A stretch of DNA of 64,000 bases from a virus. Lineage: Duplodnaviria > Caudoviricetes. A program made the translations under genes and the position numbers. The stretch lies in IMG/VR virus record IMGVR_UViG_2791355076_000001, positions 1 to 64,000 of that record; one strand, given 5' to 3'. A model generated the notes under the pieces. It did no database searches. It worked only from the letters and a program-made list of their open reading frames with translations, and was not told where the DNA came from. Of this stretch, positions 2,725 to 52,958 are shown one piece after another; position 1 is the stretch's first letter, and every line of letters begins with the position of its first letter.

Positions 2725-2751
2725 CGTGTATACGGCACGGGGAGTATTAGT

Positions 2752-3150: not shown

Positions 3151-3245
3151 TTACAAAACACAATATATTGTGTTAATGATGGTTTTGATGTTACACCTCT
3201 TATCAATTAAAAACCTCGTGAGTATAGCGGGGTTGTATTTTTTAT
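3143..3245 (+). promoter_or_regulatory. Putative late promoter pR' and tR'-like terminator
   Basis: TTGCGT...TATTGT immediately after Q, then hairpin aacctcgt-gagtata-gcggggtt + T-rich tail. Confidence 0.5.
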
Positions 3246-3490
3246 AGGTCTACTTAAGCTGATTTATAGTTAAAAAATAAAGTTTGCTATCTGAATTTTT
3301 CTATGGCTTAATAGCGTCACTGGTTTGGAAGTACAGACCTATTTATGTTAGTAAGTTTAAAGTTGTTCCCGTTTAGCGTTATCCTCGATACCTCTTCATT
3401 GTGAATTCCTTCTAATTAATTCCCATAAGTAAAAATACAAAACAAACCGCCTATGCCTTATGGCAAATTAAATAAATTAAAGGAAATTCT

Positions 3491-3703
3491 ATGTCTAATA
3501 CAATGACTGGTACAGTAAAATGGTTCGATGAAGGTAAAGGTTTTGGTTTTATTACTCCAGCTGATGGCAGCAAAGATGTCTTCGTACATTTCTCTGCAAT
3601 CCAAAGTGATAGTTTCAAAACATTAGCGGAAGGCCAACAAGTTTCATTCACCATGGAAAATGGTATGAAAGGCCCAGCAGCAGGCAACGTGGTGGCTCTC
3701 TAA
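3491..3703 (+). CDS. csp: Cold-shock protein (CspA family)
   Basis: GTVKWF...[24 protein letters not shown]1/RNP2. Confidence 0.97.
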
Positions 3704-3710
3704 AGGCGCT

Positions 3711-3851
3711 ATTACTATTCGCCTCTATTTTAAATGCCCTTGTTGTAGCAGTTCACAATATAGAACATCACAATTTGATGTCACAGTGAACAATCCACAC
3801 GGCGCAAAATGTATCTTTTGCAAAAGTGTGATGACAGCTCAAATGAGTTGA
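3711..3851 (+). CDS. ymcF: YmcF/YnfQ-like small Zn-knuckle cold-shock protein, ATT start (46 aa, not in ORF track)
   Basis: ITIRLYFKCPCCSSSQYRTSQFDVTVNNPHGAKCIFCKSVM; directly after csp. Confidence 0.8.
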   Translation: MTIRLYFKCPCCSSSQYRTSQFDVTVNNPHGAKCIFCKSVMTAQMS

Positions 3852-3872
3852 GCATTAAATAGTTGAATATAC

Positions 3873-3898
3873 AAAACCTCGCTTCGGCGGGGTTTTTT
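3873..3898 (+). terminator. Rho-independent terminator
   Basis: aaaacctcgc-ttcg-gcggggtttttt. Confidence 0.85.
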
Positions 3899-3948
3899 GC
3901 TATCTACAATCCCATGTTGGTTAAAGATAAAAAATTTAGATTTTAGGG

Positions 3949-3974
3949 CTTGAAAAATACTTGCTCGTTCATAT
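3949..3974 (+). promoter_or_regulatory. Putative sigma32 promoter of hsp20
   Basis: CTTGAAA -35 followed by gttCATAT (imperfect CCCCATNT) upstream of small HSP gene. Confidence 0.45.
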
Positions 3975-4034
3975 TTATATTTTGGGTAAATAAGAGACCG
4001 CCCATAATTCACTAAATACTGAAGGAGGAGTTAT

Positions 4035-4493
4035 ATGCCTAACATTAAACCTTTTTCATTATTCCCAACATTATCTGATAACTTACTTTCAAACCGTTTT
4101 GATCAGATAGATCGCCTGTTTAGTCAGTTAACAGGCAGTAAGCCTATTGCATCACCTGTACAGACTTATAACCTGAAACAGATTGATGATAACCATTATG
4201 AACTGACGGTGAGTGTGCCAGGATATCAAGAAAATGACTTATCGGTTTCATTAAATGGTAGTCGTTTATTGATTGAAGGGAAAAAAGAAGAAAAATCAGA
4301 AGAAGACAATGATAAATGGATCCACCGAGGCATATCTCAAGGGCAATTTACGTTGCAGTTTGACCTCGGTAAGAATGTTAAAATAGAAAAAGCGGATTTA
4401 TCAAGTGGGCTTCTGACCATTGCTATTGAGTATGAGTTACCGGAAGAAGAAAAACGGCAAACAATAGCGATAGAAAATAAAGATAAAAAATAA
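4035..4493 (+). CDS. Small heat-shock protein (Hsp20/IbpA family)
   Basis: YNLKQIDDNHYELTVSVPGY...WIHRGIS...F.LQFDL...ADLSSGLLTI alpha-crystallin motifs. Confidence 0.9.
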   Translation: MPNIKPFSLFPTLSDNLLSNRFDQIDRLFSQLTGSKPIASPVQTYNLKQIDDNHYELTVSVPGYQENDLSVSLNGSRLLIEGKKEEKSEEDNDKWIHRGISQGQFTLQFDLGKNVKIEKADLSSGLLTIAIEYELPEEEKRQTIAIENKDKK

Positions 4494-4516
4494 TTGGGTT
4501 AGGTAACGTGAATAAG

Positions 4517-4554
4517 ATTAAGGCTACGCATAATGTGTAGCCTTAATTGTTTTT
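4517..4554. terminator. Terminator between hsp20 and Gabija
   Basis: attaaggctacgca-taa-tgtgtagccttaat-tgttttt. Confidence 0.75.
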
Positions 4555-4628
4555 GTGAGGGGTTTAAATTTCACTAATTCAAAGTTGAGTTCACAAGGTT
4601 TGTAAGTCGAACATAATTAGAGTGGACA

Positions 4629-4655
4629 GTCTGGTTTGAGCGAAAAGCGGAAGTT
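4629..4655 (-). repeat. Cassette-boundary site type A (TCGCTCA core)
   Basis: Minus strand aacttccgcttttcgctcaaaccagac, just downstream of gajB. Confidence 0.7.
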
Positions 4656-4679
4656 AAATGGTTAGACGTTAGCATCGAC

Positions 4680-5834
4680 TTACAGAGGTCTAACCCAATG
4701 CGGCAGCTTTATATTTGTAAGATGCTCTTCCTCAACGACAAACGCCAGGCTGTAACGAGCCCGGGTAATGGCCACGTACAGCTTGTTTCTAGATTCCTCC
4801 GTTTTATCTCTATCGAACACGCCAAGGTCGCCCCCCAGATACTTGAGATGTTTCTCCGGTGAAATAATTAGTATGCGGTCAAAACCGAGACCTTTACAGG
4901 AGCCGAAGGTGTGACAGGTGAGACTTGGTGGCAAATAGCCTTTTCCCATGAGCGATGACCATCGCAAAACTTGAGGTTTGAATATATCGAGATAATCGTT
5001 CACCTGAGATGGTTTTATGAGAAAACAGCCGTAGTGATGGGCCATTTCTGCAGGAACTTCTCCCACCTCTGATTGCGTTTGTTCATAAATACCGGGATGA
5101 ATGGTATCCGCGAGATCGCAGATTTCCTGAATACATCTGCGATTCTTCGCCAGCGAGAACAGACTAAAATTGAGGTCTTTGAAGTATTGAATCTTTTGCT
5201 CAGGTGTTTCCGGTGCCTTGTGGCCGAACGTGGTCGTGTAAATAGTTTGACGAAAATCGCCTACACAGCAAATAGAGTTATGCATTGCCTTACTGAGTGC
5301 TTTGATAACGTCAAAATCCCATCCAACCAAATCCTGAACCTCATCAAAAAAGATCCTCTGATAAATCTCTTTCAATCTGCTAGCGGGGGCATTCTTTGTT
5401 GAAGCGGAGATTCTTGTTGCCAGCTTCGCCAGCAGTCCTGTGTAAGCTTTGGTTTTGCACGGCGTCAGATAATGAAGAGGATTCAGCACCCCATTAATTT
5501 TTTCCCCTCTTTTGGGATGCCATTTCCTCGTACCAGGTATCAGGTGAGGGTTATGCTCGGTGAACATTGTAGAAGTGATTCGATCTGGAAACATGGCCGT
5601 TTGATAAGGTCTCACTAAGTCTTCTAGGTAAAATGAAAACAGGCCTTTCACAACAAAATCATCGCTGTGTTTGCCGTACAATTCCACAAAGCGAGAACGG
5701 AGCTCTGCCTGGTTGTTCATGGTGTAGGTGACGACCAATACGCGTCCGCCCGCCTTTATGACTTCAATGGCATCCTCAATGACTTTTTGGGTTTTTCCTG
5801 ATCCTGCACCGGCAATCCAGAATTCATTAGGCAA
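4680..5834 (-). CDS. gajB: Gabija GajB (UvrD-like helicase); likely TTG start overlapping the gajA stop
   Basis: AGAGSGKT Walker A, FFDEVQD, VGDFRQTIY, KGLGFD, LYVAITRAR SF1 motifs. Confidence 0.85.
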   Translation of the reverse strand: MPNEFWIAGAGSGKTQKVIEDAIEVIKAGGRVLVVTYTMNNQAELRSRFVELYGKHSDDFVVKGLFSFYLEDLVRPYQTAMFPDRITSTMFTEHNPHLIPGTRKWHPKRGEKINGVLNPLHYLTPCKTKAYTGLLAKLATRISASTKNAPASRLKEIYQRIFFDEVQDLVGWDFDVIKALSKAMHNSICCVGDFRQTIYTTTFGHKAPETPEQKIQYFKDLNFSLFSLAKNRRCIQEICDLADTIHPGIYEQTQSEVGEVPAEMAHHYGCFLIKPSQVNDYLDIFKPQVLRWSSLMGKGYLPPSLTCHTFGSCKGLGFDRILIISPEKHLKYLGGDLGVFDRDKTEESRNKLYVAITRARYSLAFVVEEEHLTNIKLPHWVRPL

Positions 5835-7485
5835 AGTCGAACACCTCATCGAGGAAAGGTGGATACCTGAAATTCAGAGTGCAATCGAACAGCTTGATAG
5901 CTGAATCGACCTTGCGAGCGCCCTTACCGTTTCCCTGGACGCTTCGAAACCAGTCGATCAGAAAGTCGCGTCGCTTATCTAAGTCGACTACTTTATCGTA
6001 GAGGTTAAACGTCTGTGTCGATAACACCACTTTGGCGAAAGCGTCCAGCGTAACCAAGTCGGTTGCATTGGCATATATCATCGCGGGTTCAAGCGAAAAC
6101 TCCTCATTTTTGGCAGAGGAGATAAGTTTGATATTGGGATAGGCTGCATAATCGGTACGCACTTTCACGACGTTTTCTTCATAGTCGCCATCGTTATCTC
6201 TGAGGACGTTTATCCGGGTACCAATTTCCATACCTACGGAGATGAACGTATCAAACCCGACTCCGCGCACGACGATGATATCAATACCATCCTGCTCGGG
6301 CAGGCGGTTGTGCTTGCGGTGGTAAATCTTCTTGAGTACTAACTCGTCTGACGGTCCCTCGACAAGGATGACTTTGTGCGACAGTGCCACGCGCAATGTG
6401 TCATAGCCCGGTAAGCGCTTTAAGGTTTTGACCACTGCAGGGGCAAGCTTATGCAGACGTTTGTATCCCGACTGAACCAGGCAGATTTTATCAATGCTCA
6501 GCTTGTTGAGCACATACGAGCTGTGAGTGGTAAGGAAGAGTTGTTTGTCACCCCGCTGATTTTCAATGTAGTGAATCAGCTTATTGAGGTTAGTGTGAGA
6601 AAGGTGATTTTCTGGCTCCTCCATCATCACCAAATCGATATCCTTCGATTTGTTCTGAATCGCGAGCTTAATCTGCACATTACTCTGCTCACCCTTGCCA
6701 ATGAACTGGAAAGGGACATCATCTACTTCAAGTTGAAGGCTGGTCTGAATAGATCCCGCTGGTAAAGTGCTTGCGGCAATGGACAGCTTTTTTTCTGTGA
6801 TCAAGTGGTCCGTATCCAAACCGGTGTTGACTGTCCTGACCTCACCTGAGTTGTTAAAAACCTGCTGATTCTCACGATAATTGAGGGTCAGCTTAACCAG
6901 CTCCTCTTTCTTTAAAGCGGTATTAAGTATGGTAGAGATATACTGATTCTTACCTAGAGTGGGGTGGATACGAGTTGGGTCGATGTATAACGCCCTGAAT
7001 TTCTTCGCTACGGCTTTAACAGGATTCCACCCGAAATCCAGCCATTCCAGCTTGTAGAATTCGATCGGGATACTCGTAATGTGCGGGTTTGTCAGTAAGT
7101 GTTCGGCGTAAACATCCTTTAGCGTGTCATCAAAACGCACCAGCACAGTGATACCTTGAGCATCGGCTTTAAGGAAATTATTTGTACCCCGGTATTCAGG
7201 CACTCCCTCAATGAATGCCTCTATTGCCAAGACAGGCAAGTGCATGGCCGATTTATCAGAAGCCAAAAAAAGCTGCACTGCATCCTTATTAAAAATGTCT
7301 GGCGTAAACTCGCTGTTGAAGGGACGGCCCCGATAGCTGTAATTCAGTACGATTTCTAGGGCTTCCAGAATAGTACTTTTACCGGCGTTGTTATCACCTA
7401 CAAAGATATTTACGTCATCGTTGAATTCAAAATGTTCATCTTTGAATTTCTTGAAATTGGTAAGCTTAATCGATTTAACCCGCAC
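5827..7485 (-). CDS. gajA: Gabija GajA (OLD-family ABC ATPase + TOPRIM nuclease)
   Basis: GDNNAGKST Walker A, MEEPENHL Walker B, TTHS, ILVEGPSDE and DND TOPRIM; paired with UvrD-like gene. Confidence 0.87.
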   Translation of the reverse strand: MRVKSIKLTNFKKFKDEHFEFNDDVNIFVGDNNAGKSTILEALEIVLNYSYRGRPFNSEFTPDIFNKDAVQLFLASDKSAMHLPVLAIEAFIEGVPEYRGTNNFLKADAQGITVLVRFDDTLKDVYAEHLLTNPHITSIPIEFYKLEWLDFGWNPVKAVAKKFRALYIDPTRIHPTLGKNQYISTILNTALKKEELVKLTLNYRENQQVFNNSGEVRTVNTGLDTDHLITEKKLSIAASTLPAGSIQTSLQLEVDDVPFQFIGKGEQSNVQIKLAIQNKSKDIDLVMMEEPENHLSHTNLNKLIHYIENQRGDKQLFLTTHSSYVLNKLSIDKICLVQSGYKRLHKLAPAVVKTLKRLPGYDTLRVALSHKVILVEGPSDELVLKKIYHRKHNRLPEQDGIDIIVVRGVGFDTFISVGMEIGTRINVLRDNDGDYEENVVKVRTDYAAYPNIKLISSAKNEEFSLEPAMIYANATDLVTLDAFAKVVLSTQTFNLYDKVVDLDKRRDFLIDWFRSVQGNGKGARKVDSAIKLFDCTLNFRYPPFLDEVFDFA

Positions 7486-7649
7486 TCTAAGTCCCTCAAG
7501 ATACTGTCAAATGATACCTCTTAAAGATATTAACTCACCGATATACCTGTGTCCACATGCAGGCTCGTTGTCCCCTTAAATCCTGCAGGCACTGAAGTGG
7601 TGGTCGACATAAATAGGCCAAGATATGAGAGCTGTTCTTGGACAACTTA

Positions 7650-7675
7650 AAGTCTGCTTTTGGCACTGTGCGGAC
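7650..7675 (-). repeat. Cassette-boundary site type B (GTGCCA core)
   Basis: Minus strand gtccgcacagtgccaaaagcagactt, upstream of gajA. Confidence 0.7.
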
Positions 7676-7772
7676 TATCTGATTAGATTTAGCCTCAAAT
7701 CATAGTAATATTAGATCGAATCTGATCATATACATCTAAATTATAGGTATGAAAGAATTTCTCAACACAAAA

Positions 7773-7878
7773 TAAAAAAATGCCGATACGCTAGGAGTCA
7801 TATCGGCATATAAAATAAACGCAAGAAGCAATGTAAGTCATGTCGTACTAATTCGTATCAAACCTGTCAATTTGATAC
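7773..7878 (-). ncRNA. ryhB-like: RyhB-like iron-regulated sRNA (~105 nt)
   Basis: Minus strand: 5' hairpin gtatcaaa/tttgatac, core AGTACGACATGACTTACATTGCTTC (cf. RyhB AGCACGACATTGCTCACATTGCTTC), terminator tgccgata/tatcggca + T run. Confidence 0.8.
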
Positions 7879-7884
7879 ATATGT

Positions 7885-7914
7885 AATGATAATTATTCTC
7901 ATTATTATATTCAA
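7885..7914 (-). promoter_or_regulatory. Sigma70 promoter with overlapping Fur box for RyhB-like sRNA
   Basis: TTGAAT-17-TATCAT with AATGAGAATAATTATCATT across spacer/-10. Confidence 0.78.
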
Positions 7915-7955
7915 CCCTAAATTAAATAAGGTTACTTTGTAGCCTTTTCGTTTAC

Positions 7956-8011
7956 GCCGACCACAGAATCAATACCCACTTATAGCGTTCACACAAGAGC
8001 TGTGAGTCGGC
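7956..8011 (+). other. Conserved stem-loop element (also at 51519..51574)
   Basis: GCCGAC-CACAG-(ATCAAT...TTCACACAA loop)-CTGTG-a-GTCGGC. Confidence 0.5.
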
Positions 8012-8282
8012 ACCTTTTAATAGGGTTTCATTCTTGATAGCACACACAAGTGCTTTTATTGCAAAAATAAAGTTTGCTATCTGAATTTTTCTATGGCTTA
8101 ATAACGTCACTGGTTTGGAAGTACAGGCCTATTTATGTTAGTCAGTTTAAAGTTGTTCACCGTTTAGCGTTATCCTCGATACCACTTCATTGCGAATTCC
8201 TTCTAATTAATTCCCATAAGTAAAAATAAAAAACAAACCCTCATATGCCTTATGGCAAATTAAATAAATTAAAGGAAATTCT

Positions 8283-8495
8283 ATGTCTAATACAATGACT
8301 GGTTCAGTAAAATGGTTTAACGATGATAAAGGTTTTGGTTTCATCACTCCTAAAGATGGAAGTAAAGATGTATTTGTACATTACTCTGCAATTCAGAGTG
8401 ATGACTTCAAATCTCTGATGGAAGGCCAAGAAGTTTCATTTACCATTGAAAATGGTATGAAAGGCCCAGCAGCAGGCAACGTGGTGGCTCTCTAA
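8283..8495 (+). CDS. csp: Cold-shock protein (CspA family), second copy
   Basis: [31 protein letters not shown]. Confidence 0.97.
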
Positions 8496-8502
8496 AGGCG
8501 CT

Positions 8503-8643
8503 ATTACTATTCGCCTCTATTTTAAATGCCCTTGTTGTAGCGGTTCACAATATAGAACATCACAATTTGATGTTACAGTGAACAATCCACACGGCGCAAA
8601 ATGTATTTTTTGTAAGACTGTGATGGCTGCTCAAATGAGTTAA
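8503..8643 (+). CDS. ymcF: YmcF/YnfQ-like small protein, ATT start, second copy
   Basis: FKCPCCSGSQYRTSQFDVTVNNPHGAKCIFCKTVM; several synonymous differences vs copy 1. Confidence 0.8.
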   Translation: MTIRLYFKCPCCSGSQYRTSQFDVTVNNPHGAKCIFCKTVMAAQMS

Positions 8644-8867
8644 GCGTTAAATAGTTGAATATATAGAACCTCGCTTTGGCGAGGTTTTTTTGTTGCTTAA
8701 ATTTAAATATGATCCCTTTATATTTTAAAACGTACATATTCATTAGTGTGTGGTAAACTTAGGAAAGTAAACATACCTCATTGCTATCAACAGCAAACCT
8801 TGCATTTGCAAGTTTTTATCGAAAATAGATGCGGTATCTAAAGGAATGACTTCCTAAGGAGATGCCT

Positions 8868-11527: not shown

Positions 11528-11671
11528 AAATATTATTTATTATTTTATGAATAAATTTATAAATATGTACAGTAATAAATAAGAATTACTATATTTTTAT
11601 AAATCATCTCGAAAATCTCTTAATAATTTCTCTTTATATTAATCATTAATGGGCACTCCGTAGGGGTGTAT

Positions 11672-11941
11672 ATGTGTATGGAAAAATTAATCAATGTTAC
11701 TTATGGAACAGCGGGCTTAACGGCATTTTTTGCCAGCCTCTCATTATATGAATGGGGATTTGTTATCGGGATGGCGTTTAGCATGCTTCTTGGTTTAGCT
11801 ACTTATTTTATGACTCGTCGAGAGCAACGAAAACGCACTCAATTATTTGAAGAGCTTGTTCGTCATGTTGACCCACAAAACCCAACCGAAACGTTAAAAA
11901 GGCTTGCTGAATTAATGGTGAAAGCGCCAAAGGATATTTAA
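11672..11941 (+). CDS. Holin with dual-start motif (M-C-M)
   Basis: MEKL..VTYGTAG, two TM segments, basic C-terminal part, upstream of endolysin. Confidence 0.85.
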   Translation: MCMEKLINVTYGTAGLTAFFASLSLYEWGFVIGMAFSMLLGLATYFMTRREQRKRTQLFEELVRHVDPQNPTETLKRLAELMVKAPKDI

Positions 11942-12411
11942 TGTCTCTCAAACAGAAAATAGCGGCGCTAACAACTGCGGGAGCAACAGCAATCGCGTTA
12001 GTTGTCATTGCCCATTTTGAAGGTGTGCGTTATGAACCTTATCGTGATGTGGCGGGTGTTCTAACAGTTTGTTATGGGCATACAGGCAAAGACATTATTC
12101 AGGGTAAGAGATACACACAACAAGAATGTGATGCGTTATTACAAAACGATTTTATTAAGACACAACAGCAAATCGATGCATTAATCAAAGTACCACTCGA
12201 TGACTACACCAAAGCCGCTTTATATTCCTTTGCTTTTAATGTGGGAACAACCGCATTTGCTCGCTCAACATTACTCAAGAAATTAAATGCGGGTGATAGA
12301 GCGGGTGCCTGTGAAGAAATGAAACGTTGGGTTTATGCAGGAGGAAAGGTTTGGCGAGGGCTTGTCAGTCGTCGAGAGGCGGAGTCAGCACTATGTCATG
12401 GAAACCTTTAA
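11941..12411 (+). CDS. SAR endolysin (GH24 lysozyme)
   Basis: Ala/Gly-rich N-terminal SAR; EGVRYEPYRDVAGVLTVCYGHT catalytic E-D-T. Confidence 0.93.
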   Translation: MSLKQKIAALTTAGATAIALVVIAHFEGVRYEPYRDVAGVLTVCYGHTGKDIIQGKRYTQQECDALLQNDFIKTQQQIDALIKVPLDDYTKAALYSFAFNVGTTAFARSTLLKKLNAGDRAGACEEMKRWVYAGGKVWRGLVSRREAESALCHGNL

Positions 12412-12551
12412 TCATCATTATCAGCTTTATCCTTGCATTACTCATTACAGTCGCTGGTGGCATTTATCTCTTGATTGATAACTCATGTACTAAAGACCAA
12501 GTGAGTTTAGAAAAACGCTGTCAGATTGCACTCTCATATCATCGGTACTAA
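12393..12551 (+). CDS. 52-aa single-TM protein between endolysin and Rz
   Basis: GGAG SD; MSWKPLIII...; conserved at 52336..52494. Confidence 0.7.
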   Translation: MSWKPLIIIISFILALLITVAGGIYLLIDNSCTKDQVSLEKRCQIALSYHRY

Positions 12552-12553
12552 TC

Positions 12554-13015
12554 ATGAAATACGGGAAACTCTATGCCATCATTGCGTTGGTAGGCATTAT
12601 TGTGGGTAGTTATTGGGTGATTAACTGGCAAGCTAATAGGATTAATTCACTGACAGATATCAACAAAAAACTGGCCGTGGCTCTCGAAGAACAGAAGTCT
12701 ATTAATACTGACTATCAAGCACGCATAATGCGATTAAATCAGTTGGATATTCAATATACGCAGGAGCTAGCGAATGCTAAGAATGAAATTAGTCGCTTGC
12801 GTGATATTAGCGAGCGTCATCCTGAGCGGGTGTACATCAAAGCCGAGTGTCCCAAAGTCAAAACCACTCCCGCCACCAGCTTGGCTTATGCAACCACCGC
12901 CCGACCTACTGACACCGCTATCCGAAATTATTGGTTACTCCGAGAACGAATTGCAGAGTCAGAGCTGATGATTAAAGGGTTGCAGGATTACATTAGAGTG
13001 GAGTGTGTGAACTAA
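12554..13015 (+). CDS. Rz: Rz i-spanin
   Basis: N-terminal TM, coiled coil, LQDYIR.EC C-terminus. Confidence 0.9.
   Translation: MKYGKLYAIIALVGIIVGSYWVINWQANRINSLTDINKKLAVALEEQKSINTDYQARIMRLNQLDIQYTQELANAKNEISRLRDISERHPERVYIKAECPKVKTTPATSLAYATTARPTDTAIRNYWLLRERIAESELMIKGLQDYIRVECVN
12783..12968 (+). CDS. Rz1: Rz1 o-spanin lipoprotein embedded in Rz
   Basis: Lipobox LSGC, Pro-rich PPPAWLMQPPP. Confidence 0.88.
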   Translation: MKLVACVILASVILSGCTSKPSVPKSKPLPPPAWLMQPPPDLLTPLSEIIGYSENELQSQS

Positions 13016-32614: not shown

Positions 32615-32862
32615 AGATATATGAAAAAGGAAAGCCAATAAAAATCACAGGGCGTTCGTTTATTTTTGACCAAATAGCGGTCACTCAGAATGGCAGTAAA
32701 ACTTATAATAATATTCCTAAAGGGCGGTCATTGGCCGCCTATATTGTAGCTAGAAACCGAGGATCTTATTTCACTGTTAAAGTCGAGAATAATAAAATTT
32801 CGTGGAATTCTCTACGCGGTAGTCAATCGATTAATGGAATTATTATGGTACTAATTAAATGA
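32599..32862 (+). CDS. Tail-tip associated hypothetical protein
   Basis: MSWGIEIY start typical of post-cor genes; overlapping operon. Confidence 0.6.
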   Translation: MSWGIEIYEKGKPIKITGRSFIFDQIAVTQNGSKTYNNIPKGRSLAAYIVARNRGSYFTVKVENNKISWNSLRGSQSINGIIMVLIK

Positions 32863-33503
32863 GTAAATATGGTGCATTATTTTTTAATCAGGGCATTACC
32901 GAAGAATTAACACCTTATGAATCAGCCGTATTTTTAAAAAAGATAAAAACTAAGCCGGGGCTAATTAAAATTATCGAAGGTAATAATAACGCAGTGCCAC
33001 TTATTTTTATTCGAGTTCTTAATTCTTCTAATCCATCATTAGGTGGATTATCTGAAGTAATTTATGAGAATAATGCGTGGTGTGTGAATTTAATCGATAC
33101 TATTCAAGGCAATTCAGCAGAATATGAGCTCTATGTATTTGTGAAGTCTTCTTATCATATTTCACTTCATCCTCAAAAATGGGGAATTCAAATTTATCAT
33201 AAAGGTGTTATTACACATGCTTCAAGCCAAAGACCGCTTAATTTATTAGAGGGAAATAACTTTGTGCTCACAGGAAATAATTGGAGTGGCGTGGATGTCG
33301 GTTTCCCCTGTGCGGTATTAATCACAACAATTGGACATATTGGGATGATGGATTCTATGGGAGGAAAAACGATTAGAGTAACCCTATGTGGACGAGGTAA
33401 CCGTATTATTCCTCATTCCATGATTGTAGCCGGACAAATGTCAACAACCTCGCTAGGAAAGCAGTATTTTTATATTGATGTAAGGGAGTATGGTGGGGGC
33501 TAG
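32859..33503 (+). CDS. Tail-tip associated hypothetical protein
   Basis: MSKYG...KWGIQIY...SSQRPL repeat motif. Confidence 0.6.
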   Translation: MSKYGALFFNQGITEELTPYESAVFLKKIKTKPGLIKIIEGNNNAVPLIFIRVLNSSNPSLGGLSEVIYENNAWCVNLIDTIQGNSAEYELYVFVKSSYHISLHPQKWGIQIYHKGVITHASSQRPLNLLEGNNFVLTGNNWSGVDVGFPCAVLITTIGHIGMMDSMGGKTIRVTLCGRGNRIIPHSMIVAGQMSTTSLGKQYFYIDVREYGGG

Positions 33504-33564
33504 GAAAGAGTTTAGTTAGTTTAATTGATGGGAAAAAGGTCACTAAAGAAATATATTCGTTGGT

Positions 33565-33591
33565 GGTCTGCTTTGTGCCAATAGCGGACGT
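33565..33591 (+). repeat. Cassette-boundary site type B
   Basis: ggtctgctttgtgccaatagcggacgt. Confidence 0.72.
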
Positions 33592-33900
33592 CACTACAGT
33601 GGCTTGCGATATTAGGGGGCAGGGTTAGTCAAAACATTACTGACATCACCGCGTATTGATCAACCGAGAGCAAAGTCAATGGTGGCTTATTAGGTCTACA
33701 GAAGTGGGCTTGATGATGTATTTAGGCTGTCTGAAGGCTGTTCTGGATTGATTACGCAAGACTACCTAATAAGGGTTTATAACACTTATCATGCTAACAA
33801 CACATTGCTGTACATTCACGGTATGTATGATATACATCCAGCCAGCGTGATAGATGGGCTTTAACACAGTTACTGATTGAGGCATACAAGGAGCCAGATA

Positions 33901-35115
33901 ATGTACTTACCATCAAAAAGTCTTTGTGACATTTTAGCATCAGAACAAGTTGGAGTTTTTTGTGAGTCCAATTCTTCAGGCGATAAAGCGTTAGTAGCAA
34001 AATTACCTACATCAGTCATCAAGTCCATTTTACTTGGTGTTAAGATAGAATTTTATCTATTTGTTAAAATAAATCCCCCACATAATATCGCATTGGCCTT
34101 AAAAGTATTTGATAATAAATCATCACCTTTCCATGGGATACTTGCTCAACGTTGGAGTAATCGCAATAATATTTTTGATGATTCATTCTTAGACTCAGAT
34201 ATCCACCTATCTTTATTCGACGAGACTGACGCGAGCGTTGCATATGGAACAATAAATATAAAAACTAACTTTAGAAACAAAAGAGCTTATAACATAATTG
34301 CAAACTTTGAATTTTCTTCAGCAAATAATCATCTAGATAACATTAAATTCACTGATTCGGTATGTGCCTCATTAGGATCTGATGATGTGAAACATGCGGG
34401 ATTCAATGTGTTAAAATTTCACTTCCCCATTAAGGTTAAAGAACTTGAGACTATCCTTACGCATCATGTAAATCATCAAGGTTCATCAAGTTATGAAGTG
34501 GCTACAGAGATTGATGGCGCGCGGCAGGAACGTCAGATTTATCAGGCGATTTGCCTGATGGATAACTCCTCAACGACCTTGTCTCCATTAGTAACGATTG
34601 GGAAAAAGGAAAGAGAACTAACAGATGTATTAACTTGCTCGCTAAACAATAAAGTTATTGCGATTGAGTCTAAATGCCTACAAGTAAACGTATCGACTCT
34701 AGATAAATCTCGTGAACGAGCTTCATCGAGCATGATTAAACACTGCAGGAAAGCAATTAATCAACTGGAAGGGGTCTATAAAGCAATAAATAGAGGTGAG
34801 AAAATATATAACTCTGCTGGAATAACACTCTTGCATGGTGGCGATTATGATTTCTATGGCATAGTCCTAATAGATGAATATAGAGAGTCAAAAGAGTGGC
34901 CTGAAATAATTGGGTTAATTGAAGATATTAGCAGGCGACACAAAATTTGCATAAATGTTATCAGTGTGTCAGAAATTATTTACAATATGAAATTAAGTTC
35001 ATCAAATACTGACACGTTCATTAGCATGCTTCAAAAGCGGCATGAGCTATGCTTAAAAAAGAATTGTATTAATATTAAGTTCATTAACTCATCATTACCA
35101 ACTATGCCTGACTGA
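33901..35115 (+). CDS. Hypothetical protein with C-terminal PD-(D/E)xK/NERD-like nuclease motif
   Basis: AGGAG SD before ATG 33901; GARQE...ERELTDVL...IAIESK...KAINQL. Confidence 0.7.
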   Translation: MYLPSKSLCDILASEQVGVFCESNSSGDKALVAKLPTSVIKSILLGVKIEFYLFVKINPPHNIALALKVFDNKSSPFHGILAQRWSNRNNIFDDSFLDSDIHLSLFDETDASVAYGTINIKTNFRNKRAYNIIANFEFSSANNHLDNIKFTDSVCASLGSDDVKHAGFNVLKFHFPIKVKELETILTHHVNHQGSSSYEVATEIDGARQERQIYQAICLMDNSSTTLSPLVTIGKKERELTDVLTCSLNNKVIAIESKCLQVNVSTLDKSRERASSSMIKHCRKAINQLEGVYKAINRGEKIYNSAGITLLHGGDYDFYGIVLIDEYRESKEWPEIIGLIEDISRRHKICINVISVSEIIYNMKLSSSNTDTFISMLQKRHELCLKKNCINIKFINSSLPTMPD

Positions 35116-35390: not shown

Positions 35391-35690
35391 TTACATAACT
35401 AGTGAATCCAGAGTCACTAAATGGGTAAGGGATATACATTTTTGCTTTGCAACAAAATCTGTTTCCTCCGCCTCTTGTGGAAGCATGTATAAAATATCTA
35501 GTGGCAATTCCGCTCCTGCAAGCTTTAGCTCTGCTTTTAGTTGGATTAATGCTTCTCCTGAAGGACCTATAACCAAAATATCATAATCCGTGCCTACTCT
35601 AAAAAGCGACGAGCCAAACATAAAGCATTCAAAAAACTTCAATGCTTGGCACGTTTTTAAAAGGTGGCGTGCCACGTCGCTTACCGACAT
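35391..35690 (-). CDS. Minimal nucleotidyltransferase (Pol beta/MNT fold), 99 aa
   Basis: FMFGSS...TDYDILVI and PLDIL motifs; ATG overlaps upstream TGA (TGATG). Confidence 0.8.
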   Translation of the reverse strand: MSVSDVARHLLKTCQALKFFECFMFGSSLFRVGTDYDILVIGPSGEALIQLKAELKLAGAELPLDILYMLPQEAEETDFVAKQKCISLTHLVTLDSLVM

Positions 35691-36334
35691 CAATGGCGAA
35701 GAATTAATTTCTTGAACTCTGACCATTTCATGACTCCGCAACCAAGTTCACGCCCTGCTGCAAGGGCATTTTTAGTAGGATCTCCGTTAGGATTAATGTT
35801 CCACATGACATCAACTGGACCAAACTTATCCCAAAATGATCGCACGGCATCAGCTGTGGGCTCATACTCAAGTAGCATACCCACCCTCAGCTTGCGACCA
35901 TTGGCTAAATCAATATTGAATACGCGATCAAACTCCCGCTCTATACTTCTTACAACGCTCATTTGAGTTATAAGCCGATACGAGAAAAAATAATCTTTGT
36001 GAGAAGCAATATTAACATTATTGTCTAAAAGGGCAGAATATAAGGTGCCTGCATTGCCCCATCCTATTCTTGCATCACTTAAGTAGTTGATAGCTTCACC
36101 TGTCCACACACACTCTTTTCTGTAACCACAGATAAAATCTAAATCAGGAAATTTTTCATGATACTGCTTAGCAATCTCAATAGTGATCTCATATGATGCG
36201 GAAATAATAGCTAATGTGTCAGGTCTGTCTTGGATAAAAATTCTGATTGCATCTTCAGCGACATGTTCTGCTGAAGCTGTTCTTTTGAGGTCGTTATTTA
36301 TATTTTCAAGTGCATATTTAACTTGCCAGTTCAT
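35690..36334 (-). CDS. Hypothetical protein with two internal repeats (possible degenerate Mrr/REase folds)
   Basis: ATGA overlap with HNH stop; halves align YEIT..EKFPDLDF..TGEA vs YEPT..DKFGPVDV..TKNA. Confidence 0.72.
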   Translation of the reverse strand: MNWQVKYALENINNDLKRTASAEHVAEDAIRIFIQDRPDTLAIISASYEITIEIAKQYHEKFPDLDFICGYRKECVWTGEAINYLSDARIGWGNAGTLYSALLDNNVNIASHKDYFFSYRLITQMSVVRSIEREFDRVFNIDLANGRKLRVGMLLEYEPTADAVRSFWDKFGPVDVMWNINPNGDPTKNALAAGRELGCGVMKWSEFKKLILRH

Positions 36335-37035
36335 GCAAATATTCCATCCATATCTTGAGGGTAACGAATGGCTCTTCCAGAAACACCACAAATATGGCGC
36401 TCAGAAAGTCCACGAACATGCTCTTTGTATTGTGCGAAGGTTTCCCGTTCTTCAGCTGTCAGATGACATAAGTTCATACTTATGATTGCCTGAATGCGGA
36501 AGTGATTAGGTAAAATGACACTTTTCATCCTTTTCGACCAAATTTGAGCTGTTTCAGACTCAGGATCGAACTCAGATCTAGTCCCGTCAACAGGAGCGAA
36601 CTCTTTCCATATAGCCTTACTTTCATCCATAGCTGCTATGATGGCCTCTCTTGCTTGTCTTCTATCTTCATAACAAATAATACCTTGCTTATGTGCTAAG
36701 GCTGAAAGATGGTTGCTCTTCCAATCTAAAATCATGCTTCTTGGGAATGAGTCAGGCTCTTTATCAATAATAGTGTGGCAAGTTGGACATAGTAGTATGA
36801 GATTTTCAAATAAGTCAGCTTCAAACTCCTCAGCAGGCCTCTCTTCGTGGCGAGGCCCAGCCTTACCATGAGGAATCACATGTGCCATTTCAGCTATATG
36901 CTTATCACCGCCTATCTCTGCTGGGAATAGTGGCTTAAGGCAATCTGGTTTCTGACAATGACCTGCCGATGCCGAAAATAACCGCAATTTGGTTTCGTTT
37001 GGGATACTTTTCCGAATAGCCATTTTAGATTCCAA
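36331..37035 (-). CDS. HNH endonuclease-domain protein
   Basis: LFSASAGHCQKPDC...AEMAHVIPHGKAGPR...ENLILLCPTCHTIIDK. Confidence 0.85.
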   Translation of the reverse strand: MESKMAIRKSIPNETKLRLFSASAGHCQKPDCLKPLFPAEIGGDKHIAEMAHVIPHGKAGPRHEERPAEEFEADLFENLILLCPTCHTIIDKEPDSFPRSMILDWKSNHLSALAHKQGIICYEDRRQAREAIIAAMDESKAIWKEFAPVDGTRSEFDPESETAQIWSKRMKSVILPNHFRIQAIISMNLCHLTAEERETFAQYKEHVRGLSERHICGVSGRAIRYPQDMDGIFA

Positions 37036-37153
37036 TGGATTGATTGTAAAATAAAAAAAATTCTGTGCTACACCTGAAATAGCATAAAGTTGATCACCTC
37101 ATATTGCACTACATTTCCATCAAGTTCTATACCATGTTGATAACAATTTCGAA

Positions 37154-37178
37154 TTTCTGCTCCTCGCTCAAAGCTGAT
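37154..37178 (+). repeat. Cassette-boundary site type A
   Basis: tttctgctcctcgctcaaagctgat. Confidence 0.72.
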
Positions 37179-37472
37179 AATCAAGTTCGAATGGTTGAAT
37201 AATAAATTGTTATTTTCATTTTAAATAAGATACTCTAAATTATTACTAGCTTTAATTATTATAACTAAACCTATTATTTAATATAAATAATAGGTTTGAG
37301 TGTTTGGCGGCAAGTTTAATAAGCTCTCAATCATTTAAAAAACTTCCCCAAAACCACTCCAACCCAAACTAAAAATCAATCAGTTACATACAAACCAAGA
37401 TCACATAAAAATAAATAATCACCTCCAATAATTATAATTTATTTAATAAGTTACGAAATTATTATGGGTATA

Positions 37473-37637
37473 ATGCTACGCCACATGGGTTGGACTGAAG
37501 CGGCTGACTTAATCATTAAAGGTATGGAAGGCGCGATTGCTGCTAAGACTGTAACTTATGATTTCGAACGTCAGTTAGAAGGCGCTAAACTGCTGAAATG
37601 TAGCGAGTTTGGTGACGCGATTATCAAACATATGTAA
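37473..37637 (+). pseudogene. icd': 3' fragment of isocitrate dehydrogenase (icdC-like att duplication)
   Basis: [54 protein letters not shown]. Confidence 0.95.
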
Positions 37638-37658
37638 TTGTTGATTTGATAAATAGTT

Positions 37659-37686
37659 AACGGGAGCTTATTAGTTCCCGTTTTTT
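37659..37686 (+). terminator. icd terminator copy
   Basis: aacgggagct-tatt-agttcccgttttttt. Confidence 0.85.
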
Positions 37687-37705
37687 ATTGTCAATTTTGA
37701 AATGG

Positions 37706-37757: not shown

Positions 37758-38885
37758 TTAAATCACGATTTTTATCCAATCTTTTCCTCGATCATCATGG
37801 TATTTATCTGTTTGAATTTGGTTCTTATGACCGAGTAAATCTTTAGTGTTTATACCTTGTGCTCTATATAACCTTTCAGATAAAGATCGTTGTTCATGAA
37901 ATGTTGCAGGTGTTCCTTCTCCCCAATCAATATCCGTTTTATTTCTCGCTTTTTTAAAGTTAGTCGTTAGCGTATTTGCAGTAACTTGATCACCACGTTT
38001 AGATTGTGAAGTAGTATGAAAGTAATGAATAAGATAAGGGCTAATAACGCGATCACGGCAACGGGCAACAACATCACGTAATGACATATTTAATTGTTCA
38101 GAACGTAGTGATAATGGAATAGCTAATTTAGTACCCGTTTTCTCTTGAGTAATATGCAAATGATCATCCCAAATATCACTAAACTTCATTGCGGAAATAT
38201 CACCTAATCGTTGGCCAGTAATTAACGCAAGCAACATGGCATTTCCCACATAACGATGTTGTTTATCAGCAATCTCAAATATCTTTTTCCATTCATCAAA
38301 ATTAAGGCGTTGGCGAGTTACTTTTCGTTTTGGCTGTTTAGTAGCGAGGGCAGGGTTATAACCGGGAGGAACTTCACCTGCATGTTGCGCTTCTTTAAAT
38401 ACATCAATTAAAACAGAGCGAATAACTTGTGCCATTCTGTGCTGACCATTAGATTTATATTCATCCAGAATTTCAGCAATATCTCTGGCATCAACAGCGG
38501 GTAATGGTTTCATGGATAAGGCTTGCCTCATTAAATCTACCGGCTTCCTTTTTTGTTTATAAGTATTCGGTTTTATATCACCTTCCTTTAAACGCTCTTC
38601 TTGAATAACCCAGTATTTATCCAACCAAGTATTAACCGTGATTTCTTTACCTTTTATTTTTGCCACCCGATCACCAATAGCCATAACTTGTCGGCTACGT
38701 TGTTCCGCTAACCTTGTGTTAGCTTCAATGGCTATTGCTTTCGCCTCGGCTTCATTGTCACCGAGGGCATGATATTTACCTGTTACAGGATGGCGGTAAC
38801 GCCAATAAACCTTGTTAGCTTTACGACTAAATAAAGGGTAAAGATTTGGAATATTGACGTTATTTTTACGAGGTCTGGCAGCCAT
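37758..38885 (-). CDS. int: Tyrosine integrase (lambda/phage 21 family)
   Basis: TGQRLGDI, QEKTG, FHEQRSLS, LLGH, Y catalytic residues; N-terminal arm-binding domain. Confidence 0.96.
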   Translation of the reverse strand: MAARPRKNNVNIPNLYPLFSRKANKVYWRYRHPVTGKYHALGDNEAEAKAIAIEANTRLAEQRSRQVMAIGDRVAKIKGKEITVNTWLDKYWVIQEERLKEGDIKPNTYKQKRKPVDLMRQALSMKPLPAVDARDIAEILDEYKSNGQHRMAQVIRSVLIDVFKEAQHAGEVPPGYNPALATKQPKRKVTRQRLNFDEWKKIFEIADKQHRYVGNAMLLALITGQRLGDISAMKFSDIWDDHLHITQEKTGTKLAIPLSLRSEQLNMSLRDVVARCRDRVISPYLIHYFHTTSQSKRGDQVTANTLTTNFKKARNKTDIDWGEGTPATFHEQRSLSERLYRAQGINTKDLLGHKNQIQTDKYHDDRGKDWIKIVI

Positions 38886-48476: not shown

Positions 48477-49307
48477 ATGGAAACTGTAAAATCAATTGGA
48501 CCACGAGATTATAGACCTAAAGATATACGGCGATTAGATACACTGTCTGGTAATAAGTGTGCAGCCCCGCATTGTAATAAGAATTTAGTTTCTATAGATG
48601 GTAGTTCTATTGTAAGTAAAATATGCCACATTGAAGCAGCTAGTCCAAAAGGGCCTCGCTATAACTCATCTATGACTAATGACCAACGCAGAGGTTACGA
48701 TAATCTGATTTTGTTATGTGATGAATGTCATATAATGATAGATAATATGGATAACATTAAAAAATATCCAGTTAGCTTACTTCATGAATGGAAAAAAAAT
48801 CATGAAGAAATTGGTATGCAAAAAAAAGCTACAAAAAAATCAATGCTAATGAGTGCAATTAATGCTATTGCTAATGTAGATTTTGATGATTCTGATTCGA
48901 CATACCAACTTGGAACAACAACTATTTTTAATATAGAAGAAAAAATAAGCCACAATAATATAGTGAGAAAAAAACATTTAATTGATGCATACAAAGTTCA
49001 TTATACAAAACTTGCTGTATTATATAATGAGTTAGAAAATACAGGATCCTTTAAAATAGCGAAGTTACTTAGAAATATAAATCTTATTTATATAAATGTC
49101 GTTTCCACATATATTAATTCTTCTGTCAATTATATTGATGTAATTAGATTGCATGCTGATGATATAATAAATGATATTGAAGATGAGTTAATGTCAGCTT
49201 GTCAAAAAAATAGTGATGTTGATGATGGTGACTTAATGTATGGAATTTCAGTTATTATGGTTGATGCATTCATGAGATGTAAAATCTTGGAGGAACCACC
49301 TAAATGA
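48477..49307 (+). CDS. Lamassu/ABC-3C effector (HNH + C-terminal domain), LmuA-like
   Basis: SGNKCAAPHC...ICHIEAASPKGPR...NLILLCDECH..ID; C-terminal VDAFMRCKILEEP. Confidence 0.78.
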   Translation: METVKSIGPRDYRPKDIRRLDTLSGNKCAAPHCNKNLVSIDGSSIVSKICHIEAASPKGPRYNSSMTNDQRRGYDNLILLCDECHIMIDNMDNIKKYPVSLLHEWKKNHEEIGMQKKATKKSMLMSAINAIANVDFDDSDSTYQLGTTTIFNIEEKISHNNIVRKKHLIDAYKVHYTKLAVLYNELENTGSFKIAKLLRNINLIYINVVSTYINSSVNYIDVIRLHADDIINDIEDELMSACQKNSDVDDGDLMYGISVIMVDAFMRCKILEEPPK

Positions 49308-51574: not shown

Positions 51575-51614
51575 ATTCCTTCAACTAAACTCGGACACTC
51601 CGTAGGGGGTGACT

Positions 51615-51884
51615 ATGCGCATGGAAAAATTAACCAATGCTACCTACGGAACAGCTGGCTTAACTGCCTTTTTTGCAAGTCTCTCACTTTATGAATGGGG
51701 ATTTGTAATAGGGATGGGATTCAGCATGCTCCTTGGATTAGCAACTTATTTTATGACACAGCGAGAACAGCGGAAACGAACAGCGTTATTTGCTGAATTA
51801 GTTCATCGAAATTGTTCTAGCGATCCGCAAGACATAGAAAAGATAGTTGGCGAGATGCTGACTAAAGCTAAAAAGGACATTTAA
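51615..51884 (+). CDS. Holin with dual-start motif (M-R-M)
   Basis: Homologue of 11672..11941. Confidence 0.85.
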   Translation: MRMEKLTNATYGTAGLTAFFASLSLYEWGFVIGMGFSMLLGLATYFMTQREQRKRTALFAELVHRNCSSDPQDIEKIVGEMLTKAKKDI

Positions 51885-52354
51885 TGAATCTAAAACAGAA
51901 GGTAGCAGCAGTTGCGAGTGCCGGTGCGGTAAGTATTGCGATAACAGTAATTGGTTACTTTGAAGGTGTGCGTTATGAACCTTATCGTGATGTGGCAGGT
52001 GTTTTGACAGTTTGTTATGGGCATACAGGCAAAGACATCATTCAAGGTAAGACATATACACAACAAGAGTGTGACGAATTACTGCAGAAAGACTTTATCA
52101 GAACACAACAACAAGTTGATGTCCTGGTTAAAGTGCAGGTCGATGATAAAACAAAAGCGTCTCTATATTCCTTCGCTTTCAATGTCGGCACCACAGCTTT
52201 TGCACGTTCTACATTGCTAAAGAAATTAAATGCAGGTGATCAGTATGGTGCCTGTGAAGAAATGAAACGCTGGGTTTATGCGGGTGGCAAGGTATGGCGA
52301 GGGTTAGTCAGTCGTAGAGATGCGGAGTCAGCACTATGTCATGGAAACCTTTAA
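51884..52354 (+). CDS. SAR endolysin (GH24 lysozyme)
   Basis: EGVRYEPYRDVAGVLTVCYGHT. Confidence 0.93.
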   Translation: MNLKQKVAAVASAGAVSIAITVIGYFEGVRYEPYRDVAGVLTVCYGHTGKDIIQGKTYTQQECDELLQKDFIRTQQQVDVLVKVQVDDKTKASLYSFAFNVGTTAFARSTLLKKLNAGDQYGACEEMKRWVYAGGKVWRGLVSRRDAESALCHGNL

Positions 52355-52494
52355 TCATCATTGTTGGTTTTATCCTCGCATTACTCATCACGGTCGCTGG
52401 TGGCATTTATATCTCAATTGATAATTCATGTGTTAACGATAAAGCCAGTTTAGACAAGCGCTGTCAGATAGCTCTCTCACATCATCGGTACTAA
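52336..52494 (+). CDS. 52-aa single-TM protein between endolysin and Rz
   Basis: MSWKPLIIIVGFILALLITVAGGIYISIDNSCVNDKASLDKRCQIALSHHRY. Confidence 0.7.
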   Translation: MSWKPLIIIVGFILALLITVAGGIYISIDNSCVNDKASLDKRCQIALSHHRY

Positions 52495-52496
52495 TT

Positions 52497-52958
52497 ATGA
52501 AGCACTGGAAACTTTACATAGTCATTGTGATGGTGGGTATTGTTGCTGGCGGTGGTGTGCTGATTAATGCACAAGCTAAAAGAATTAACACGCTAACAGA
52601 AAACAACAAAGAACTTACAGCCATACTCGAAGAGCAAAAGGCTATCAATACTGACTATCAAGTACGTATAGAGCGACTAAATCAACTTGATACAAGGCAC
52701 ACACAGGAGCTTGTTAATGCAAAGAATGAAATTAGTCGCTTGCGTGATATTAGTGAGCGTAATCCTGAGCGGGTGTACATCAAAGCCAACTGTCCAAAAA
52801 ACGAAACCACTCCCGCCACCAGCATGGATGATGCAACCACCGCCCGACCTACTGACACCGCTATCCGAAATTATTGGTTACTCAGAGAGCGAATTGTCCA
52901 GTCAGAGCAAATGATTAAAGGGTTGCAGGATTACATTAGAACGGAGTGTTCTCAATAA
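52497..52958 (+). CDS. Rz: Rz i-spanin
   Basis: Homologue of 12554..13015. Confidence 0.9.
   Translation: MKHWKLYIVIVMVGIVAGGGVLINAQAKRINTLTENNKELTAILEEQKAINTDYQVRIERLNQLDTRHTQELVNAKNEISRLRDISERNPERVYIKANCPKNETTPATSMDDATTARPTDTAIRNYWLLRERIVQSEQMIKGLQDYIRTECSQ
52726..52914 (+). CDS. Rz1: Rz1 o-spanin
   Basis: Lipobox LSGC, PPPAWMMQPPP. Confidence 0.88.
   Translation: MKLVACVILVSVILSGCTSKPTVQKTKPLPPPAWMMQPPPDLLTPLSEIIGYSESELSSQSK

Follow-up and report, generated by a model that had tools for sequence, protein, structure and literature searches.

We describe a compact cassette of three genes, here called g1, g2 and g3, on the minus strand of a 64,000-nucleotide stretch of viral DNA (Duplodnaviria; Caudoviricetes), positions 1 to 64,000 of the IMG/VR record IMGVR_UViG_2791355076_000001; this whole stretch is referred to below as the window. 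The genes encode an HNH nuclease with a helical C-terminal domain, a two-lobed protein of an orphan family and a minimal nucleotidyltransferase (MNT), and they recur together, in the same order, in Proteobacteria and beyond. We are modestly inclined to the view that the trio is a self-contained mobile three-component conflict system, likeliest of the anti-phage abortive infection kind and organized in the manner of a toxin-antitoxin module under enzymatic control. Whatever its exact working, we consider a role in defence or abortive infection probable, and we rate it among the nucleotidyltransferase-controlled nuclease systems.

Three genes conserved as a unit

The cassette is 1.6 kb in size and comprises g1 (36331-37023, minus strand; 230 aa), g2 (35690-36334, minus; 214 aa) and g3 (35391-35690, minus; 99 aa). 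The stop codon TGA of g1 (36333-36331) overlaps the ATG of g2 (36334-36332) to give ATGA, and the TGA of g2 (35692-35690) has one A in common with the ATG of g3 (35690-35688), giving TGATG. An earlier inspection of the letters and translations, hereafter the sequence-only reading, had described three genes coupled by precisely these two overlaps, and all three minus-strand open reading frames (ORFs) and both junctions were indeed found. It had placed the start of g1 at 37035, which is an upstream in-frame TTG that is probably unused; since the homologs of g1 are uniformly 230 aa long and begin with MAxRK, translation likely begins with the ATG at 37023.

A pattern scan for relatives of g2, carried out on one genome per prokaryotic species, yielded 56 loci, in 55 of which relatives of g1 and g3 flank g2 in the same order (the exception, L058, is truncated). 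The hosts are Alpha-, Beta- and Gammaproteobacteria, together with metagenome-assembled genomes of Chitinophagaceae and Hydrogenedentota. The 4-nt overlap between g1 and g2 is present in all 53 loci where both ORFs can be delimited, and g2 and g3 share 1 or 4 nt in 45/56 loci, the largest gap being 14 nt. A g2 subgroup that is only ~25-30% identical to the g2 of the window supplied another 39 loci from metagenomes, including some near-duplicates. A g1-like gene lies upstream in 32/32 of those loci with room for it (the other seven have <270 nt upstream), and a g3-like gene lies downstream in 36/36 (the other three contigs end there). This arrangement is far beyond chance, and the gene neighbourhoods bear out the coupled three-gene operon of the sequence-only reading as a conserved unit. 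There is no conserved fourth gene, because among the ORFs lying up to 3 kb from the trio, clustered over 55 loci, even the commonest family, an integrase, is represented in just 7 loci and the next, guaA, in 6. All three genes have been kept under purifying selection, as comparison with the two nearest relatives gives ratios of nonsynonymous to synonymous substitution rates (dN/dS) of 0.10-0.36 for g1, g2 and g3.

The idea that three unrelated prophage cargo genes happen to stand side by side here, without forming a functional unit, can appeal to the absence of family matches for g2 and for the g3 of the window, and to nothing else. Against it stand the order and the coupling, which are preserved through the genome and metagenome loci counted above while the neighbourhoods are otherwise unrelated; these counts refute it, and we leave it practically no probability.

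The nuclease protein g1 and its constant C-terminal domain

The N-terminal domain of g1 (residues 1-115; 36679-37023, minus strand) is an HNH (beta-beta-alpha-Me) nuclease of the type found in Cap5. The motif series announced by the sequence-only reading is complete, comprising C23-x4-C28, AH48VI, GPR58 and N74LILLCPTCH83TIID, with a Cys4 zinc site (C23, C28, C79, C82) and the catalytic residues H48, N74 and H83. In an alignment of 25 sequences of g1 (A3), C23, C28, C82, H48, N74 and H83 are invariant and C79 nearly so. The Pfam families HNH_2/HNH are matched by 25/25 members of the g1 family, the match of the g1 from the window being weak. According to PADLOC, residues 4-113 resemble HNH effectors of the cyclic oligonucleotide-based anti-phage signalling systems (CBASS), SAVED_HNH and PDC-M68A, at E-values of 1e-21 to 1e-22 (PDC-M68A: 6e-22, profile positions 3-110/253). 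In the AlphaFold model of g1 (predicted local distance difference test, pLDDT, 83.8), residues 6-115 superimpose on Cap5 with a Foldseek probability of 1.0 and 24-29% identity, and a comparison with Cap5 (7rwk) by VIA gives Z 12.3, with a root-mean-square deviation of 3.2 and 25% identity over 105 aligned residues. The sequence-only reading had connected this HNH type with both Cap5 of CBASS and Lamassu; PADLOC, Foldseek and VIA agree on the former, whereas the latter is absent from the PADLOC hits. We conclude that the domain is a Cap5-type DNase, apparently an active one.

A second Cap5-type HNH protein, of 276 aa, is encoded elsewhere in the window, in the second of its two prophages (48477-49307, plus strand). 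It is 33% identical to residues 14-107 of g1 and matches PDC-M68A better than g1 does (8.5e-32, profile positions 4-160/253). Neither a g2-like nor a g3-like gene adjoins it.

The C-terminal domain of g1 (residues 116-230; 36334-36678, minus strand) is an orphan helical domain, a putative "receiver". In the model it contains helices at residues 121-142, 157-183 and 190-210, and a structure search with the domain as modelled within full-length g1 returned only generic helical-bundle matches (Z ≤8.3). It has no match in Pfam (25 members), in the PDB sequences or in Atlas, the only PDB sequence hit, Crov588, being a repeat artefact. A HEPN identity, prompted by the residues R204-x5-H210, was considered and not adopted. 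In the wide family, R121, P144, E155, S156, W162, P172, N173, E192, H202, H210 and P222 are invariant, and all of them except H210 are also invariant in a separate alignment of 8 sequences (A8) that includes the degraded copy L097.

In three distant cassettes this C-terminal domain is kept and the N-terminus is a different one: in L091 it is EAD1 (PF19955; Pfam E-value 7e-22), in L069 a segment with two hydrophobic helices, and in L071 a Cys-rich segment, the last two being transmembrane-like and Zn-ribbon-like, respectively, as judged by sequence alone. The HNH domain thus occupies a swappable effector slot, in which variants are rare, and the element that is constant and couples to g2 and g3 would be the helical C-terminal domain. 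The constancy of this domain against a varying N-terminus argues that the C-terminal domain of g1, together with g2 and g3, forms a regulatory core, of which the HNH domain would be the weapon. A comparable exchange of EAD or effector domains at an N-terminal slot preceding a constant module is described for counter-invader systems in the available text of Kaur et al. 2021 (PMC8195603).

The two-lobed protein g2

No match to g2 was found in Pfam, PADLOC, NCBIfam or the PDB sequences. Searched by profile against 1.8 billion representatives, it falls into a family of 235 clusters at 50% identity (E-value ≤0.001), nearly all of which are 205-230 aa long; no fused forms were seen among the longer proteins, which is weak evidence. 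The structure is predicted with confidence (pLDDT 91.2, predicted template modelling score 0.83) and contains two consecutive alpha-beta-beta-beta-alpha-beta units, corresponding to two restriction-endonuclease-like lobes in tandem (1-111 and 112-214). In an exhaustive structural search with VIA, both halves were superimposed on restriction-endonuclease-like domains, with 88-101 residues aligned and with moderate scores, the matches including AF1548 (1y88, Z 9.1), VC1899 (1xmx, Z 9.0), Cdn1 (8z4i, Z 8.5) and Can2 (7bdv, Z 8.0), as well as NucS, BsaWI and Bax1; the C-terminal lobe also matches Can2 in the structure 8bao (Z 7.2). Foldseek gave only meaningless metallo-beta-lactamase rows against the PDB (TM-score ~0.2) and nothing at an E-value of 0.001 against BFVD, where scattered "restriction endonuclease" rows appear with a probability of ~0.9.

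An alignment of 32 sequences, reaching down to 20% identity, leaves only M1, G93, Y157, R165 and P182 invariant, in addition to the conserved motifs EYE(L/P)TADxVR and NPNG. It contains no conserved PD-(D/E)xK motif: D136 and E156 vary, and strand 3 lacks a Lys. We therefore read g2, from its model and alignment, as a putative non-catalytic pseudo-dimer of restriction-endonuclease folds. The term "tandem-repeat protein", given to g2 by the sequence-only reading, holds at the level of the fold; as a sequence repeat it was rejected, because the profiles of the two halves are not significantly similar (hhalign E-value 0.13).

The minimal nucleotidyltransferase g3

The 99 residues of g3 contain the motifs G26-S27, D35-x-D37 and D66, which are the length and the residues of the GS...DxD...D protein noted before. 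Its assignment to the MNTs of the pol-beta superfamily, likewise made at that stage, agrees with the Pfam family NTP_transf_2, matched by 25/26 members of the g3 family (best E-value 1e-7), and with the profile searches, in which solved MNTs are nearest. A profile of 22 diverse members compared with the PDB finds AF0614 (1ylq, 1.1e-4), the antitoxin MntA (5yep, 0.003), 2rff and HI0073 (0.0065), and gives weak matches to polymerases of the pol X type (E-value 0.11). Among the five best matches of this profile is also chain E of 9xbd, a 120-aa "nucleotidyltransferase domain-containing protein" in a multi-chain entry (E-value 0.0089). In the 22 members, F25, G26, S27, D35, D37, P63, E73 and F79 are invariant. 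We thus regard g3 as an MNT with an intact G-S/D-x-D site, for which catalysis is predicted.

Occurrence in genomes and mobile elements

The cassette is rare, patchy and mobile, being found at prophage ends, in integrase islands, on plasmids and in defence islands. It is present in 1/5,426 complete genomes of E. coli, within a CP4-57-like island, in 1/300 genomes of other species of the same family and in 0/2 of the same genus. Eight plasmid records carry it, four of them conjugative, where it is annotated as "HNH endonuclease", "hypothetical protein" and "nucleotidyltransferase domain-containing protein". In Thalassospira, Gilvimarinus, Halomonas and Azoarcus (loci L005-L008) the trio resides in a common island, in which guaA, an integrase, the trio and a 349-aa ORF follow one another (at ~2000-8100 in locus coordinates), and this points to the recent transfer of one integrative element across three proteobacterial classes.

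To characterize the neighbours, 128 of the 157 flanking ORFs of at least 100 aa from 20 of the 56 genome loci were compared with Pfam. Recognized defence families adjoin the trio in 7/20 loci, namely putAbiC; AbiEii; DruA; BrxA with an MbcA/ParS-type antitoxin domain (Xre_MbcA_ParS_C) and a protein with a Schlafen/AlbA_2 (SLFN_AlbA_2) domain; the Cap4 nuclease with an SMC-like ATPase; a type I restriction-modification system with AAA_21/UvrD; and HamA with a helicase. Genes for an integrase, a Tn3 transposase, a resolvase or TraG occur in 6/20, and the remaining loci have housekeeping or unannotated neighbours. By the principle of guilt by association, this context, along with the carriage by mobile elements and the patchy distribution, fits defence.

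A possible mechanism and its alternatives

If the trio is a conflict system of the kind proposed, its parts could work as follows. The HNH domain of g1 would be the DNA-degrading effector and the helical C-terminal domain its constant receiver or docking domain; g3 would be an active MNT; and g2 would act as a non-catalytic, pseudo-dimeric sensor, of nucleic acid or of a ligand, and at the same time as a scaffold. Translational coupling would deliver the three proteins in a fixed ratio and lead to their assembly. In the resting cell the MNT would nucleotidylylate a partner, as MntA reportedly does by AMPylating HepT, and thereby hold the effector off; the modified site could be in the C-terminal domain of g1 or be the invariant Tyr157 of g2. 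Upon infection, sensed via g2, the modification would be stopped or reversed, and the HNH domain would cut DNA. A MNT that modifies or signals to the nuclease and a middle protein that acts as the sensor had been put forward in the sequence-only reading, and both roles are hypotheses. We favour covalent NMPylation over a diffusible signal as the means of control, by analogy, because the nearest solved relatives of g3 are MNTs of this sort, because MNTs typically act together with a partner domain made of helices (according to the available text of PMC3710099), and because the coupling suggests a stoichiometric complex; this particular point is tentative, and we put its likelihood clearly on the low side.

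The strongest competing explanation has the C-terminal domain of g1 read a diffusible nucleotide signal. In such a CBASS-like second-messenger pathway, g2 would sense the infection and activate the MNT (possibly as a composite g2-g3 enzyme), and the nucleotide would bind the C-terminal domain and, in the way known for SAVED in Cap5, induce oligomerization and switch on the HNH domain. The closest relative of the HNH domain is indeed Cap5, a ligand-activated effector, g3 belongs to the pol-beta superfamily as do the CD-NTases, and the replacement of HNH by EAD1, transmembrane or Zn-ribbon segments before a constant domain mirrors sensor-effector fusions. However, the members of the g3 family, with only ~95-100 aa, lack the helical half of the CD-NTases, no match to a CD-NTase, to SAVED, to CARF or to another known sensor emerges from Pfam and PADLOC, the solved structures nearest to g3 belong to MNTs that modify proteins or are bound to a partner and not to signal synthases, and the strict coupling of the three genes is suggestive of a stoichiometric complex. 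We consider this explanation unlikely. Somewhat less likely still is a pure addiction module that stabilizes mobile elements, in which the HNH protein would be the toxin, opposed by the MNT alone or jointly with g2 as the antitoxin, and which would have no anti-phage role. In its favour, the genes are small and overlapping, the relatives of the MNT include the antitoxin MntA, and the trio is carried by plasmids, integrase islands and a prophage end; yet the exchange of the toxin for EAD1, a non-enzymatic adaptor, would make little sense in a simple module, and defence genes are frequent neighbours. The two readings overlap, as many toxin-antitoxin modules are also anti-phage.

We attach a decidedly small probability to a restriction-like or DNA-processing complex that does not kill the cell, in which g2 would recognize a feature of DNA (an end, a modification or a lesion), the HNH domain would cut, and the MNT would extend DNA or RNA ends in the manner of pol X or terminal transferases. 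The two restriction-endonuclease-like lobes of g2, resembling a single-chain dimer, the faint similarity of g3 to pol X-type polymerases, and the type I restriction-modification and other nuclease systems near some loci would be in keeping with it. On the other hand, the trio has no conserved companion gene for self-protection, such as a methyltransferase, g2 is devoid of a conserved PD-(D/E)xK motif, g3 has no DNA-binding or fingers/thumb part, and effector variants of the transmembrane and EAD1 types do not fit a purely DNA-cutting machine.

Several observations weigh against the abortive conflict system with a modifying MNT that we prefer. The g3 of the window misses the Pfam family NTP_transf_2 even at an E-value of 0.1, and the third acidic position, D66 in this copy, is His in most of the distant members; given His at the third metal ligand, the activity of g3 could be unusual. 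The C-terminal domain of g1 has no HEPN or NTase_sub_bind match in Pfam in 25/25 members at E-values up to 1, and the pair R204-x5-H210 is present in the close family only, R204 being replaced by Asp in the wide family. Because of this lack of a HEPN match and the loss of R204, the analogy to the HEPN-MNT pairs rests on the fold class only. The layout of an effector followed by a constant domain is typical of second-messenger effectors and favours signalling over covalent control. The fold scores of g2 (Z 7-9) are moderate, lie inside the background range stated by the tool for best matches, and give no function. Finally, carriage by a prophage is atypical of the trio, because neither 50,697 phage records nor, in a pattern scan, IMG/VR yielded a match to g2.

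Comparison with known systems

The sequence-only reading had recognized no named system in the trio and had seen no SAVED, HEPN or SMC partner; both statements stand, as Pfam and PADLOC detect no such partner and neither the PADLOC v2 profiles nor the literature provided a match. NCBIfam has no model for g1, g2 or g3, and in PADLOC g2 matches nothing (5/5 proteins tested), nor does the g3 of the window. A literature search for the trio and for its protein accessions from E. coli, which did not extend to supplementary tables and subscription-only papers, found no description, and the cassette may already be listed as a numbered candidate in a recent large-scale screen.

CBASS with Cap5 (HNH-SAVED; 7rwk, 8fmf) has the HNH type of g1, and the operon of the trio likewise includes a nucleotidyltransferase of the pol-beta superfamily. 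However, this is not a CD-NTase: g3 has 99 aa, does not match the CD-NTases of PADLOC, and comes from a family that matches only NTP_transf_2/Polbeta. Nor does g1 contain SAVED, as the SAVED_HNH profiles of PADLOC match the HNH part only (residues 4-111) and the C-terminal domain is an orphan helical bundle, and CBASS has no counterpart of g2, which is obligatory in the trio. With the HEPN-MNT systems (type VII, HepT/MntA, and HI0073/HI0074) the trio shares a member of the same minimal nucleotidyltransferase group, with GS...DxD, paired in an operon with a helical-bundle protein, and small, overlapping and mobile genes. On the other hand, its candidate toxin is an HNH DNase and not a HEPN RNase, no conserved Rx4-6H is present in g1, and there are three genes instead of two, with g2 in the middle.

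Two further PADLOC entries are matched in their common cores. PDC-M68, an HNH protein that was not found in the literature searched, matches g1 in the generic HNH core only and leaves the C-terminal domain unmatched, and PDC-S09, an MNT-like single gene of ~100 aa, is weakly matched by distant relatives of g3 (best E-value 3.7e-7), in the MNT core only. The counter-invader systems of Kaur et al. (2020, 2021; PMC7159879, PMC8195603) resemble the trio in combining a constant core with an N-terminal slot for an effector or EAD1; in the available text of these papers, their cores are STAND, MoxR-vWA and other NTPases, whereas that of the trio has no NTPase and consists of an MNT and a protein with a double restriction-endonuclease fold, and the trio itself is not described there. 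The halves of g2 have the same fold core as the PD-(D/E)xK domains of Can2/Card1/Cdn1, VC1899 and AF1548 (moderate Z of 7.2-9.1), from which g2 differs in having two lobes per chain, no conserved D...(D/E)xK, no CARF and no sequence similarity. "Candidate new anti-phage system", the designation chosen in the sequence-only reading, is a fair one, and it has been strengthened by how strictly the trio is conserved and by the exchange of effectors.

The prophage context of the cassette

The window covers the right part of one lambdoid prophage (prophage 1), followed by a second, related one (prophage 2). In prophage 1 the lysis genes are at 11651-13006, and the terminase, portal, capsid and tail genes extend up to 32359, beyond which cargo genes follow. 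A 3' fragment of icd (37470-37691, plus strand; containing an ORF of 57 codons at 37464-37637), which matches icd' of phage 21 and lambdoid phages, marks where prophage 1 ends on the right (attR) and prophage 2 begins on the left, the first gene of the latter encoding an integrase (37758-38885). The 3' end of icd exists in three copies in the genome, which are 96% identical: the one in the window and two on contigs of genome G000 (C12:76555-76777 and C16:54394-54616), the copy on C16 being the end of an intact icd of 417 aa that is followed by an integrase. Since the 3' end of icd thus occurs three times, including the intact gene with its adjacent integrase, two related lambdoid prophages stand in tandem at icd. 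Prophage 1 ends with the trio as its final cargo, immediately within attR, and the trio is transcribed in the direction opposite to the late genes.

Upstream of g1, the AT-rich region 37036-37300 (GC 0.30-0.35) is a candidate promoter region of the cassette on the minus strand, with sigma-70-like hexamers at 37287-37258 and 37050-37022; the scan found no more sites than the shuffled expectation, and the promoter is a candidate only. A single RNA-library run contains a 223-nt contig identical to a part of g1, such libraries being liable to contain DNA, and contigs from two further runs match parts of the cassette at 90-99% identity, one of these contigs spanning the junction of g1 and g2. These contigs give no levels and may derive from DNA, so we do not count them as proof of transcription.

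Between the tail-fibre gene and the trio lie two other cargo genes (32859-35115, plus strand). One encodes a protein of 214 aa that matches phrog_425, "moron, membrane associated protein" (E-value 3.7e-32); the other, which could be another defence or exclusion gene, encodes a protein of 412 aa whose sole match is phrog_30399 (unknown function), Pfam and PADLOC giving none. The lysis cassettes of the two prophages (11651-13006 and 51593-52949) are 79% identical. In the early region of prophage 1, a direct repeat of 628 bp (3273-3898 and 8063-8690, 91% identical), encoding a gene similar to those of cold-shock proteins, flanks a segment of ~4.2 kb that looks like an insertion or duplication; within this segment are a small heat-shock gene of the IbpA-like kind and, on the minus strand, two ORFs (4680-5849 and 5827-7485).

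Implications

It is conceivable, with a likelihood that we would place just short of even, that g2 and g3 represent a new immune-system core, composed of a dead single-chain restriction-endonuclease "dimer" and an MNT, that controls interchangeable effectors via a new helical receiver, either by a new nucleotidylylation switch or by a new signal from the smallest known signal synthase. Should the trio prove protective against phage, it would constitute a compact three-gene system built from two orphan families and the smallest type of nucleotidyltransferase, and would connect the HEPN-MNT toxin-antitoxin systems with the Cap5/CBASS effectors. The family of g2 and the C-terminal domain of g1 are at present annotated as "hypothetical protein" and "HNH endonuclease", and a function for them would annotate the family across Proteobacteria and beyond.

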